DNA from: Escherichia phage QL01
Sequence record: NC_028847.1
DNA length: 64,000 nt
Direction: 5' to 3' (one strand)
This document shows positions 3,350-5,751 of the stretch, piece after piece. The stretch's first letter is position 1; each line of letters opens with the position of its first letter. Below the pieces are notes generated by a model. It had not been told where the DNA came from and made no database searches. It saw only the letters and a program-made list of their open reading frames with translations. Position numbers and translations under genes: made by a program.

Positions 3350-3904
3350 TCAGTTCTTGTAGAACCGGAATGGGTTTATGTGGAAGGCTAACATAGCCTT
3401 AGGGATTTTACGAGACAAAAGGCTCTTAAGCTTCCAACCACAGTACACGCGAAGGTAAAAGGTAATCCCACCAACCTTAAGATATGGAACTGAAGCAAAT
3501 ACACCCCAGGCGTCGTCATTCCACATCCATAACCACCCGTGATGAGCTTTATCAGGAGAACCGGATTCCACGTCGGGATTACCTCGATAATGGAATTCCG
3601 AGCTACAATCACGACCGAGTTTATGGTAAGCAAAGTTATAAGCTTTATTTCGCCATAGCCAAGCTACTCTCTGAAGATAAACACCACCCGGCATTTTCCT
3701 GATGTTAGCCCAACGTTTAATATGACCTTTATCACCGTCAATTGGATTATCGTATGTCATCATCCAATCAAAGCCGTACGGTAATTTACCTGTCTTTTTA
3801 TTGTGGAAAGGAACCACAAATGGTGCAAGGATAACAGCCAGAACCATAGAGATAAAATCCAGTGGAACCAACAGAACCCAACTCAAATATTTTAAAAGTT
3901 TCAT
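3350..3904 (-). CDS. hypothetical protein with N-terminal hydrophobic segment
   Basis: ORF 3350..4009 trimmed to ATG at 3904 (MKLLKYLSW...), downstream of terminator hairpin. Confidence 0.45.
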   Translation of the reverse strand: MKLLKYLSWVLLVPLDFISMVLAVILAPFVVPFHNKKTGKLPYGFDWMMTYDNPIDGDKGHIKRWANIRKMPGGVYLQRVAWLWRNKAYNFAYHKLGRDCSSEFHYRGNPDVESGSPDKAHHGWLWMWNDDAWGVFASVPYLKVGGITFYLRVYCGWKLKSLLSRKIPKAMLAFHINPFRFYKN

Positions 3905-3920
3905 ATATTTCTCTAAGTTA

Positions 3921-3943
3921 ACCAAAAAGCCCCAGACGGGGCT
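3921..3943 (-). terminator. terminator hairpin after internal-protein gene
   Basis: gccccagacggggc hairpin at 3929-3942 flanked by A/T runs on both sides. Confidence 0.45.
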
Positions 3944-3947
3944 TTCG

Positions 3948-4412
3948 TTATTTGATTTGTTTAGCAGACCAGATACGGTCTTTGATGATTTTCTGAATAT
4001 CTTCAACATACTCTAAGTCGTGAGCATGTGGATTATCTTTGAAGCTATGTGCTCGTGCCAGTTTCTGGCCTTCTGTTTTGATTACTAAAAGCTCTTTAAG
4101 AATTGCTTCATACTTAGAAATAATTCCTTTGGCGATATTTTTTTCTTGAGCGGCTTTAGGGTCCGCTTTTGACGCAGGTGCTTTACCTGTAGCTTTCTGG
4201 AACAATTCACCTGAGGCAGCTAGGCTTTTAAAAACTCGGCTAACAGTATTGGCATTAGTAAAACCTTCGGCTTTAAAATCTTTAATAAAACGGAAACGTT
4301 CTTCATCAGAGGCGTCTTTGTAAGAATATTTACCTGCTTGAATTGCTGCAATCGCAGCGGCTTTTACATCTGAACTAGATTGTTCAGTCAAAAATTCATT
4401 GTAAGTTTTCAT
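3948..4412 (-). CDS. internal protein (IP-like) with capsid-targeting N-terminus
   Basis: starts MKTYNEFLTE, matching the T4 IP capsid-targeting sequence as recalled (MKTYQEFIAE); own late promoter and terminator. Confidence 0.7.
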   Translation of the reverse strand: MKTYNEFLTEQSSSDVKAAAIAAIQAGKYSYKDASDEERFRFIKDFKAEGFTNANTVSRVFKSLAASGELFQKATGKAPASKADPKAAQEKNIAKGIISKYEAILKELLVIKTEGQKLARAHSFKDNPHAHDLEYVEDIQKIIKDRIWSAKQIK

Positions 4413-4438
4413 ATTATTTCCTAAGTTAGTTTACTACA

Positions 4439-4446
4439 TATTTATA
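4439..4446 (-). promoter_or_regulatory. late promoter TATAAATA
   Basis: exact TATAAATA on minus strand about 27 nt upstream of ATG at 4412. Confidence 0.5.
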
Positions 4447-4476
4447 CAAAAAAAGCCCAACCTTTCGGAAGGGCCT
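4446..4476 (-). terminator. intrinsic terminator, copy 2 of the repeated hairpin
   Basis: gcccaacctttcggaagggcc at 4455-4475 with A-run 4447-4454 (U-run on minus). Confidence 0.5.
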
Positions 4477-4526
4477 TTAACCTAGGGTAACCTTGTCGGG
4501 GTTCCACCTGCTAGGCAAGTGTTTGT

Positions 4527-4618
4527 ACGAAACGCCGGGATTCGAACCCGGTTATTAAGTAGTTGACGCCACTCAATATTTTTAAAAGGCCATATCTCGA
4601 CCATATCCGAACGTTCCG
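4527..4618 (-). tRNA. tRNA-like element (perfect T-arm, atypical body)
   Basis: minus strand CCGGG-TTCGAAT-CCCGG T-arm plus 7-bp acceptor pairing (CGGAACG/CGTTTCG), but no convincing D or anticodon arm. Confidence 0.25.
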
Positions 4619-4857
4619 TCAAAAACGCTACTCGGCTTACGGCAAAGATATTTCCTCGAATCGATAATTCGGTGCGCCGTTTCTGCTGTGATGTAAGGGG
4701 ACGTTAACAGATCGTAAAGATTTGTTAATGCCAGTCCTTACTCAGGGAACATCAGTCCGACGACTTACCGGTAGCGACCCGGTTTCTTGTTTGTTGCGCC
4801 GGTGAATGCTGGTAATCAGTCTTCATACGACGGCTTGACTATATAATAGTCTTCATT

Positions 4858-4932
4858 TGGTATCCCGCCCTGGGATCGAACCAGGACCGCAAACTTAGAA
4901 GGATCGTATGCTATCCATTACACCAGCGGGAC
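4858..4932 (-). tRNA. tRNA-Arg (anticodon UCU)
   Basis: 75 nt cloverleaf folded by hand: acceptor GTCCCGC/GCGGGAT, T-arm CCTGG-TTCGATC-CCAGG, anticodon loop CTTCTAA, encoded CCA. Confidence 0.85.
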
Positions 4933-4937
4933 GTAGT

Positions 4938-5014
4938 TGGTGACCCAGACCAGATTTGAACTGGTAACCTTTCCCTTATGAGGGGACTGCTGCTAACCAT
5001 TGAGCTACAGGGCC
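4938..5014 (-). tRNA. tRNA with CAU anticodon (Ile-lysidine type or Met)
   Basis: 77 nt: acceptor GGCCCTG, T-arm ACCAG-TTCAAAT-CTGGT, anticodon loop CTCATAA, encoded CCA; 5 nt from tRNA-Arg. Confidence 0.75.
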
Positions 5015-5019
5015 TTAAA

Positions 5020-5286
5020 TCAAACTACAAATCCAGCAGGAGCATTATCATCTTTAGCCATGTGCTGAATTGTATGATAAGTCATTTCTTCAGGAGCAAC
5101 CAGATAAGCCGCAGCGTTAACTAGTGGAATTATTTTTGGTTTGGCGAATGTGCTATCGGCAATTGCCATAAAGGGCTCGCCATCAGTCTCAACTTCGCCA
5201 AATTGACATTCATATGAAATAGAACAACGTTTGGTAGTTGTTGTCTTGGTTTCTGGGTCGTAAAAAGCTAATTTTAATACTAACAT
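5020..5286 (-). CDS. hypothetical protein
   Basis: ORF track start is GTG at 5292; first ATG at 5286; stop abuts tRNA 5' end. Confidence 0.4.
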   Translation of the reverse strand: MLVLKLAFYDPETKTTTTKRCSISYECQFGEVETDGEPFMAIADSTFAKPKIIPLVNAAAYLVAPEEMTYHTIQHMAKDDNAPAGFVV

Positions 5287-5460
5287 AAACACCTCAAATA
5301 AAATTAAGTAAAGTAAGTTTGATTAATAGACCTTGTCTATTATGAAAGGTTCTTTGAGGGAAGAACCTTTGGTAATAGAGGGTATTAATGATAGAGTAAT
5401 AATAACACATTACTCTTAAAGCATATTACTATTTTTAGGAATAGTCTGGTCAAATTTGAT

Positions 5461-5751
5461 TCATTGTGGCCACATATTAATGTAATCAAGTTTAATAGAA
5501 GCAATCTTCAAAGGATTTTTAAAGATGTCGTATTCGACCAACCCGTTTTCAGTTGCGGTGTAGAAAGTAAAGTTAACAGAATTATAACGGCGACCATTAA
5601 CTTTTAGTTTAACGTCGCTTGAACTACGACCAATATTAACCTGTTGGACATCAAGCACAGCACCTTTGCCAAAGTTGCGAATCAGTAGCTCTGCTGCAAC
5701 CTGGTCTGAATTATAGCCATTCTCTGGATTAGTAACCTTAACGTATAGCAT
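5461..5751 (-). CDS. hypothetical protein
   Basis: 96 aa ORF, start overlaps stop of upstream gene. Confidence 0.5.
   Translation of the reverse strand: MLYVKVTNPENGYNSDQVAAELLIRNFGKGAVLDVQQVNIGRSSSDVKLKVNGRRYNSVNFTFYTATENGLVEYDIFKNPLKIASIKLDYINMWPQ

Follow-up and report, generated by a model that had tools for sequence, protein, structure and literature searches.

Probable orthologues of the bacteriophage T4 stable RNAs rnaC and rnaD at the end of the tRNA operon of Escherichia phage QL01

Two small RNAs of bacteriophage T4, species 1 RNA (rnaC) and species 2 RNA (rnaD), have been known since the 1970s and rank among molecular biology's oldest orphan RNAs. In the T4 reference genome they follow tRNA-Arg on the same strand in the order rnaD (119 nt), rnaC (139 nt) and terminator. 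Both have been classed as late RNAs and were validated by Northern blot as discrete species (PMC9697503). Their function is stated to be unknown (PMC3014915, PMC9697503, PMC12685909), and our search for a function or a published structure, whose scope did not include the classical papers and Miller et al. 2003, returned only such statements. Here, we compare the T4 locus with a stretch of 64,000 nt from Escherichia phage QL01 (NC_028847.1), called the window in the following. In this window a preliminary description had reported two tRNA genes, an atypical tRNA-like element (4527-4619) and a gap (4619-4857) lacking longer open reading frames (ORFs), and had pointed out that T4 carries two small stable RNAs in the same neighbourhood. 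This agrees with the T4 record, which annotates rnaD and rnaC directly downstream of tRNA-Arg. We consider it very probable that element and gap are the orthologues of T4 rnaC and rnaD within a T4-type tRNA operon. The two RNAs are already known biology, unannotated in this genome.

Relationship to the species 1 and species 2 RNAs of T4

Judged by its sequence, the QL01 stretch belongs to a WG01-like T4-type phage (Dhakavirus), and the minus-strand interval 4447-5014 corresponds to the 3' or distal half of a T4-type tRNA operon. In a megablast search of window 4440-5020 against phage genomes, Escherichia phage WG01 matched with 100% identity (window 4440 is position 68481 of the WG01 record), and T4 records matched at ~94% identity over 86-87% of the query. 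The T4 features beneath this match are rnaC, rnaD, tRNA-Arg, tRNA-Ile and segB. The region 4450-4790 aligns over its whole length with the rnaD-rnaC-terminator region of T4 at ~94% identity, which is far from chance. On the minus strand the operon reads CAU tRNA, tRNA-Arg(UCU), a 66-nt insert, the rnaD orthologue, the rnaC orthologue, a trailer hairpin and the terminator (Table 1).

Compared with T4 species 1 RNA (T4s001, NC_000866 70908-71046; X03016 4741-4877), the rnaC copy of the window has the same length, the same fold and the same position as the last gene before the terminator. It differs by two substitutions only, carries no annotation, and reaches 159.3 bits with a family-specific covariance model over its full length. 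Synteny is as in T4: the copy lies on the tRNA strand downstream of tRNA-Arg and rnaD and is followed by the trailer hairpin and the terminator. The acceptor stem, the long arm, the second arm and the T arm of the fold are all conserved. By the boundaries of X03016 the rnaC core comprises 4527-4663. A published oligonucleotide used for the template of the T4 RNAC Northern probe (PMC9697503) matches window 4607-4664 exactly. Because rnaC spans 4526-4664, it includes the tRNA-like element, which is its 3' two-thirds, as well as 45 nt of the gap. Element and gap are thus not separate things, and the gap consists of the rest of rnaC, rnaD and the insert.

The rnaD copy shares with T4 species 2 RNA (T4s002) the conserved 5' hairpin, the basal stem and the place between tRNA-Arg and rnaC, and homology is clear at the conserved 5' and 3' parts (107 of 119 positions identical). 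It differs from the T4 RNA by the 66-nt insert in front of it, by its 3' end (...CACCG, compared with ...GCGCACCA in T4, where CCA is encoded) and by its apical part, as is the case between many T-even phages. In T4, rnaD starts 1-2 nt after the CCA of tRNA-Arg; in the window the insert lies between them. In other relatives an ORF precedes rnaD, so that adjacency of tRNA-Arg and rnaD does not define the wider family.

A blastn search detected rnaC in 738 phage records; in 679 of these the identity was at least 95% (97.8% in RB69). In every case rnaC belongs to a tRNA cluster of the same strand, either within the cluster or at its end, and has tRNA-like spacing, starting 5-6 nt past the preceding 3' end. 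In Karamvirus, where rnaD is absent, rnaC is located mid-cluster between tRNA-Trp, directly upstream, and tRNA-Gly, and the next tRNA follows 6-8 nt further on. The Dhakavirus genomes MX01 (NC_031934; compared with window 4519-4670) and vB_EcoM_005 have a clean deletion of 146 nt that removes rnaC, its 5' spacer and 2 nt of the trailer. They keep tRNA-Ile, tRNA-Arg, the 66-nt insert, rnaD, the trailer hairpin and the terminator nearly identical. These genomes are natural rnaC knock-outs that can be compared with WG01 for host range.

Such a deletion, a T arm resembling a tRNA relic, the presence of two tRNAs compared with eight in T4 and the widely varying tRNA content of relatives would all fit a region of decaying tRNA gene remnants or pseudogenes without a function of their own. 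We regard this explanation as very unlikely. The rnaC sequence is 98.6% identical to that of T4, whereas the adjoining trailer is only 79% identical (66/84), and compensatory substitutions keep 32 of 49 base pairs across genera. In addition, the T4 orthologues accumulate as discrete RNAs (PMC9697503). Small RNAs or tRNA remnants had been suggested earlier as possible contents of the gap. The first half of this suggestion is borne out by the alignments to T4 (137/139 and 107/119), and the second is at odds with conservation above that of the flanks and with the compensatory changes.

Still less credible, to the point of being negligible, is the idea that the interval encodes small proteins, as the "hypothetical protein" features of many GenBank records imply. 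Candidate frames exist (46 aa at 4482-4622 on the minus strand with a TTG start, 34 aa and 27 aa, the latter two on the plus strand), but none reaches 60 aa, as had been stated for 4619-4857, and the substitutions are paired and compensatory as expected for RNA. Since the next tRNA follows within 6-8 nt of rnaC in Karamvirus, the 46-aa frame cannot be conserved.

The Rfam scan proposed in the preliminary description was run at the gathering threshold and up to E=10. Both tRNAs scored above gathering and were the only passing matches; the rnaC element gave noise-level matches to curated families (tRNA-Sec with 16.6 bits, isrK, mascRNA). Therefore, no curated Rfam family covers rnaC, and Rfam 15 holds a family neither for rnaC nor for rnaD. 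Due to this lack of a model, automated pipelines will go on missing both RNAs. In the RefSeq record of WG01 (NC_031928), positions 68454-69060, equal to window 4413-5019, carry no feature in 607 nt, and the two tRNAs, rnaD and rnaC are all unannotated. Our findings thus describe an annotation gap rather than a discovery. Among the wrong labels encountered, the 3' part of rnaC is tRNA-Phe(gaa) in KKP_3262 (locus L005, 746-841), and the 3' stretch is carried as tRNA-Phe or tRNA-Lys in public records such as OQ599310 and MK327946. ARAGORN calls tRNA-Stop(tta) on the rnaC of locus L030 (980-1073), which differs by a 1-nt deletion. Many GenBank records lay a "hypothetical protein" coding sequence over rnaC and rnaD.

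Table 1 Features of the tRNA operon and its surroundings in the QL01 window. Positions within rnaC are given in brackets.
Feature	Position	Strand	Basis or remark
Intrinsic terminator of operon	4447..4478	-	GCCCUUCC-GAAA-GGUUGGGC then U7; sequence and fold
3'-trailer hairpin CACUUGC-CUA-GCAGGUG	4505..4521	-	predicted fold
rnaC (species 1 RNA) orthologue	4526..4664	-	137/139 (98.6%) identical to T4 rnaC
rnaC acceptor stem, 3' strand (131-137)	4528..4534	-	covariation, RNAalifold
rnaC T arm (114-130), 5-bp stem, loop UUCGAAU	4535..4551	-	2/5 pairs covary; 100% of cells paired
rnaC "anticodon-like" arm (87-112), 10-bp stem, 6-nt loop CGUCAA (4563-4568)	4553..4578	-	8/10 pairs compensatory
rnaC long arm (9-78), 70-nt irregular hairpin in place of the D arm	4587..4656	-	20/27 pairs compensatory (helices 2-5)
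rnaC long-arm apical loop UUGACG (43-48)	4617..4622	-	exact complement of CGUCAA (97-102, 4563-4568)
rnaC acceptor stem, 5' strand (2-8)	4657..4663	-	pairs with 4528-4534; covariation
rnaD (species 2 RNA) orthologue	4671..4787	-	107/119 identical to T4 rnaD; ends ...GGCGCACC
Lineage-specific 66-nt insert, two predicted hairpins	4788..4853	-	between tRNA-Arg and rnaD; absent from T4
tRNA-Arg(UCU), CCA encoded	4858..4932	-	ARAGORN (tct), Rfam tRNA 48.8 bits
CAU tRNA, orthologue of T4 tRNA-Ile, CCA encoded	4938..5014	-	ARAGORN (CAT), Rfam tRNA 53.9 bits
90-aa ORF (WG01 ORF140)	5020..5292	-	ORF list, WG01 annotation; phrog_14864, function unknown
Probable T4-type middle promoter	5399..5426	-	MotA-box-like ATATGCTTTA, 12-nt spacer, TATTAT; homology to T4 only

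Folds of rnaC and rnaD and the complementary loops of rnaC

Covariation in five phage genera shows rnaC to be a four-arm RNA of 137-139 nt and supports a tRNA-like but non-decoding fold. The minimum-free-energy fold of the 139 nt has -49.9 kcal/mol (z = -4.25). For the covariation analysis, 29 distinct sequences from Tequatro-, Dhaka-, Gapriver-, Karam-, Kanagawa-, Teguna- and Marfavirus-type phages were used. The copies from Karamvirus, Kanagawavirus, Tegunavirus and Marfavirus were obtained by searches with divergent copies and by pattern scans of IMG/VR and metagenomes. The rnaC covariance model, built from six sequences with the four-arm structure, gives 70-161 bits on all true copies. Standard pairs are present in 93.1% of the cells, compared with 38-50% after sliding the partners by 1-3 columns, and 32 of the 49 pairs show changes on both sides; none of 500 shuffles reached the observed values. 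Because the alignment of the 29 sequences was fitted to the covariance model, the test was repeated on 23 sequences in a plain MAFFT alignment, to which RNAalifold was applied. This yielded the same four arms with compensatory changes in 27 of 39 pairs, and recovered the long arm independently.

To reach more distant homologues, two degenerate, structure-anchored patterns were used. They returned 20 and then 35 stretches from IMG/VR, and the covariance model confirmed only one of the 18 new loci of the second scan. The metagenome scan returned 32 stretches; 11 of them proved real, and each of these belonged to a clade sampled before. BLAST with the divergent copies from Kosakonia and phiR1-RT phages added Marfavirus, Karamvirus and Cronobacter phages and none beyond the enterobacterial T4-type phages.

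The perfect T arm CCGGG-TTCGAAT-CCCGG noted before is present at 4535-4551 on the minus strand and is part of rnaC. The acceptor stem adjoins this arm with its canonical T loop, and the variable region is 1 nt long. The stretch between the acceptor strands drawn earlier indeed forms no normal D and anticodon arms. The 8-bp acceptor stem proposed for it, ACGGAACG/CGUUUCGU (4612-4619 with 4527-4534), can be drawn but shows no compensatory change. Instead, the 3' acceptor strand pairs with the true 5' end of rnaC, located 45 nt further upstream, and the acceptor pair A4-U135 alternates with G-C (10 and 19 of the 29 sequences, respectively). The 8-bp stem was rejected: it scored below all 500 shuffles on covariation, has A.C in 18 of 29 sequences and three mismatches in Tegunavirus. 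Its 5' strand (ACGGAACG) covaries instead with positions 37-43 (helix 5).

Compared with a canonical tRNA (RF00005), rnaC shares the 7-bp acceptor stem adjoining a 5-bp T stem, the UUCGAAU loop, the location and spacing within a tRNA cluster, and a discriminator with a non-encoded CCA, as found in some T4 tRNAs. The discriminator is the U at 4527, where X03016 ends species 1 RNA, and the next nucleotides are ACAAAC. In place of a D arm rnaC has the 70-nt hairpin, and its second arm has a 10-bp stem and a 6-nt loop in comparison to 5 bp and 7 nt. It further has an 8-nt A/U linker (UUUAAAAA) between the long arm and the anticodon-like arm, and tandem U.U mismatches within its acceptor stem. For the T-arm element, RF00005 gave no match even at E up to 10 and ARAGORN made no call. 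Of the 41 unpaired positions of rnaC, 15 are invariant, including the loops, the A's of the linker, G75 and C121 of the T loop; the last two could form a tRNA-like elbow pair.

A decoding tRNA of atypical type, reaching over 93-96 nt from 4527 to 4619 and being selenocysteine-like, intron-containing or a suppressor, is extremely improbable as an identity of the element. Such a molecule can be modelled, as the Rfam tRNA-Sec family aligns to 4527-4619 with an 8-bp acceptor stem and a 5-bp T arm, 84.5% of the cells in the 8-bp stem can pair, and the homologous stretch bears the tRNA-Phe(gaa), tRNA-Lys and tRNA-Stop(tta) labels mentioned above. However, the score of 16.6 bits compares with a gathering score of 47 (E=2.4), ARAGORN makes no such call in the window and the three pipeline calls disagree on the anticodon. 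Moreover, both strands of the 8-bp stem covary with other partners, and the loop actually present is 6 nt long and complementary to a second loop. Identity with tRNA-Sec (RF01852) was rejected on the score and on the 8-bp stem, which lacks compensatory change and is broken in Tegunavirus. Identity with tmRNA was likewise rejected, as the window gave neither an ARAGORN tmRNA call nor an Rfam match; rnaC has no tag reading frame and no G3.U70 pair (G3-C136 in rnaC).

The apical loop of the long arm and the loop of the anticodon-like arm are complementary over all six positions. Both are predicted to be unpaired in the secondary structure, and the complementarity ends at the loop edges. All 6 pairs are formed in 29 of 29 sequences, compared with 17-50% in slid controls. 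The loop pair reads UUGGCG/CGCCAA in Marfavirus and UUGAUG/CAUCAA in Tegunavirus, that is, two double changes in two clades, and single-sided changes were not found. The predicted single-step intermediates of these changes are G.U wobbles, the usual route of compensatory evolution. We propose UUGACG/CGUCAA as a candidate kissing interaction, for which the two events are suggestive but no proof. Since the anticodon-like loop is complementary to the apical loop and covaries with it, it is probably sequestered and would not be able to decode. The A/U linker might give the slack needed for intramolecular kissing. A third independent change of the loop pair was not present in the IMG/VR and metagenome scans.

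Loop-loop complexes are known from ColE1 RNA I/RNA II and from HIV TAR/TAR*. Likewise, rnaC has two 6-nt loops that are fully Watson-Crick complementary; in contrast to these systems, both loops belong to one molecule of 139 nt, and they may pair within it or between two molecules. A description of this complementarity was not found in the searchable literature, which does not cover the classical papers of the 1970s-80s. The corrected fold of rnaC and the covarying loop-loop complementarity are the only parts of this work that may be new. In T4 rnaC a 9-mer, GAGUAGCGU, occurs twice (positions 32-40 and 91-99; window 4625-4633 and 4566-4574), each copy leading into one of the complementary loops, and the second copy reads GAGUGGCGU in the window. 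The two hairpins may have arisen by duplication.

In rnaD, a long, irregular hairpin whose tip is hypervariable comes after a 5' hairpin; RNAalifold, run on 11 sequences, gave compensatory change at 9 of 31 pairs. In these 11 phages, 45 nt at the 5' end and 22 nt at the 3' end are nearly invariant. This holds for the 5' hairpin (RCCGG/CCGGY stem, 7-nt loop GUCGCUA), and the basal stem GUCGUCG/CGGCG(C)AC is invariant. The closing pair A5-U21 of the 5' hairpin alternates with G-C and U37-A109 with A-U, and the apical stem covaries. In some phages (loci L022 and L025, for instance) an unrelated sequence, which forms a hairpin as well, takes the place of the tip (window ~4695-4745). In Marfavirus, an element of ~50-60 nt with a terminal stem GGGGUGG/CCCACUC and the end ...CCA lies between tRNA-Met and rnaC (locus L009, 543-593; also L010 and L017-L019). 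It could be an analogue of rnaD or a mini tRNA-like RNA; its fold was no better than that of shuffled sequences (z = -0.18).

Maturation and possible roles of rnaC and rnaD

From the structure and the T4 precedent we envisage that one transcript, starting at the conserved middle promoter upstream and ending at the terminator at 4447-4478, would carry rnaC and rnaD along with the tRNAs. In tRNA fashion, rnaC would be excised by RNase P at the base of its acceptor stem, because the minihelix of acceptor stem and T arm, probably together with the G75-C121 elbow, would be recognised by RNase P and by the enzymes of 3'-end maturation and CCA addition. Its 3' end would be trimmed and CCA added by the host. 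This fits the ends given in X03016, C2 to U138: they take in exactly the 7-bp stem and a single discriminator nucleotide, and CCA is not encoded. Species 1 RNA is reported to have a length of 140 nt, which would equal 137 nt plus CCA. Release of rnaD would take place between the 3' end of tRNA-Arg and the 5' cut of rnaC, and both rnaC and rnaD would accumulate as stable RNAs.

Several phage RNAs other than tRNAs are known substrates of RNase P, among them phage phi80 M3 RNA and P1/P7 C4 RNA, and so are the dimeric T4 tRNA precursors (PMC11143913). Like tmRNA, phi80 M3 and P1/P7 C4 RNA are non-decoding RNAs with an acceptor/T-arm-like module matured by tRNA enzymes. Their likeness to rnaC is one of principle only; no sequence relationship was detected.

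With regard to function, we tentatively favour the view that rnaC imitates a tRNA without decoding and ties up a protein that recognises tRNAs, be it a processing enzyme of the host or a defence nuclease, although we consider even this idea unlikely to be correct as it stands. It is favoured because the decoding loop is unavailable and only the acceptor/T-arm face is tRNA-like. A more specific version, in which the loop is locked to the tip of the 70-nt arm by the 6-bp kissing interaction and the acceptor/T-arm face, the only one left exposed, acts in trans on such a protein (for example a host nuclease that targets tRNAs in defence, or a tRNA-processing or CCA enzyme), is slightly more doubtful. 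If rnaC were a mimic, its patchy occurrence with losses in MX01 and vB_EcoM_005 would reflect host-specific selection, and an RNA that has been without a function for ~50 years would gain a testable one.

The main functional rival, to which we give a similarly low chance, is that rnaC and rnaD are processed but act in cis only, as structured spacers that guide RNase entry and shield the 3' end of the operon, the released RNAs being inert. Their place at the operon 3' end just before the terminator in T4-type phages, the hypervariable and spacer-like tip of rnaD and the tolerated natural loss of rnaC are in line with this. However, in Karamvirus rnaC lies mid-cluster and rnaD is missing, and the constancy of 15 of 41 unpaired positions from genus to genus, both loops and the linker among them, exceeds the needs of a spacer. 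Furthermore, when a T4-like phage was evolved on a semi-permissive host, the same single-nucleotide polymorphism (SNP) in rnaD was fixed in all lines, a convergent and adaptive change (PMC12685909).

Improbable, more so than a role in cis, is that rnaC and rnaD are trans-acting small RNAs that regulate host or phage mRNAs by base pairing. The term "small regulatory RNAs" is applied to them in one transcriptomics paper (PMC9697503), single-stranded stretches of rnaC (UUUAAAAA and the loops) are conserved, and the rnaD tip differs between phages, as a targeting module might. Against this, the conserved rnaC loops are complementary to each other and not free, the architecture is tRNA-like with no evident features of Hfq-type RNAs, and there is no known target, a target search not having been made.

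Several points weigh against the picture of rnaC and rnaD drawn here and should be kept in mind. Stable accumulation (at ~140 nt for rnaC) has been shown for T4 and is predicted for QL01. RNase P processing and CCA addition are inferred from structure and from the classical T4 work, and our analysis points to no binding partner of rnaC. The alignment of 29 sequences was fitted to the model, though the MAFFT alignment was not. Two positions of the acceptor stem, 5/134 and 6/133, are non-pairs (U.U) in 25-26 of 29 sequences; they are U-A and C-G in Tegunavirus, whose stem is perfect (CAGUCCG/CGGACUG). Helix 9-11/76-78 and the G75-C121 contact never vary and therefore have no support from covariation, and the non-canonical T loop UGCAUGC of the Kanagawavirus copies means that the tRNA-like elbow is not universal. 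The kissing loop is based on two independent events only and could be intermolecular. Finally, the clean loss of rnaC in MX01 and vB_EcoM_005 makes it dispensable at least in some settings. The comparative model offers concrete targets for mutation, namely the true acceptor stem, the 6-nt loop, the covarying loop-loop complementarity and the invariant nucleotides of linker and elbow.

The 66-nt insert, the tRNA genes and the surroundings of the operon

The insert in front of rnaD was found only in 25 Dhakavirus-type records, at at least 95% identity. It shares three blocks with rnaD in the same order, GYCGUCG, GACUGAU and CGGCGCA. An alignment tolerating long gaps gave a score of 27.8 compared with 17.3 +/- 3.3 for shuffles and was reached by 6 of 2000 shuffles; a plain local alignment was not significant (109 of 1000 shuffles). 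Because significance is limited to the gap-tolerant alignment, the idea of a "mini-rnaD" is tentative. The insert may be a truncated rnaD-like copy, either as a third small RNA or otherwise, or a 5' extension of rnaD. It gave no tRNA or Rfam signal and contains no exact T4 late-promoter motif. Within 4788-4853 we also observed a 9-nt direct repeat, ATGAAGACT, whose two copies are separated by 32 nt, together with a small, perfectly paired hairpin, GACUAU-UAU-AUAGUC.

The two minus-strand tRNAs of the preliminary description, Arg-UCU and one with a CAU anticodon, 5 nt apart, were recovered both by ARAGORN and by Rfam above the gathering score of 29 bits (RF00005), and they are the only tRNA genes that ARAGORN finds in the whole 64-kb window. 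The tRNA-Arg is identical to that of T4 in 75 of 75 positions. ARAGORN and most GenBank records call the tRNA at 4938-5014 tRNA-Met(CAT). Since its body is identical to that of T4 tRNA-Ile (T4t002), in which CCA is not encoded, it is most likely an isoleucine tRNA reading AUA. The term "reduced", applied earlier to this cluster, is right in so far as there are two tRNAs compared with eight in T4, but the difference is ordinary T-even variation: the related loci that we examined carry 2 to 11 tRNAs and in each case end in rnaD and rnaC. T-even phages differ in tRNA content partly via SegB homing (PMC2330249).

In T4, a middle promoter is reported to lie just upstream of the tRNA cluster, with transcription traversing the whole cluster and stopping after species I RNA (PMC2330249). 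The block ATATGCTTTA-N12-TATTAT upstream of the 90-aa ORF is common to the window and to T4, where it lies upstream of the tRNA cluster. A scan of 4300-5700 for the sigma-70 consensus gave no promoter; the assignment of a promoter here rests on homology to T4. The 90-aa ORF occupies the place of six further tRNA genes of T4 and is probably co-transcribed with the RNA operon; a Pfam search with it gave no match. With PHROGs and Pfam, all three ORFs adjoining the RNA cluster were assigned to function unknown.

The trailer hairpin is kept in all T4-type loci examined. The T4 site homologous to the terminator of the operon is given as "potential terminator" in X03016. A consensus scan did not list the terminator of the window, probably because its stem contains two U.U mismatches. 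Directly past it, at 4439-4446 on the minus strand, lies an exact T4 late-promoter motif, TATAAATA, ahead of the 154-aa ORF 3948-4412; motifs of this kind occur 19 times in the window, compared with 8 expected. Between the RNA cluster and e.8, the interval 3350-4412 contains two minus-strand ORFs, this one of 154 aa (phrog_2280) and one of 219 aa (DUF7338/phrog_2143). In T4 no ORF separates the cluster from e.8, the first gene downstream of it, and the two ORFs are another sign of a plastic neighbourhood.

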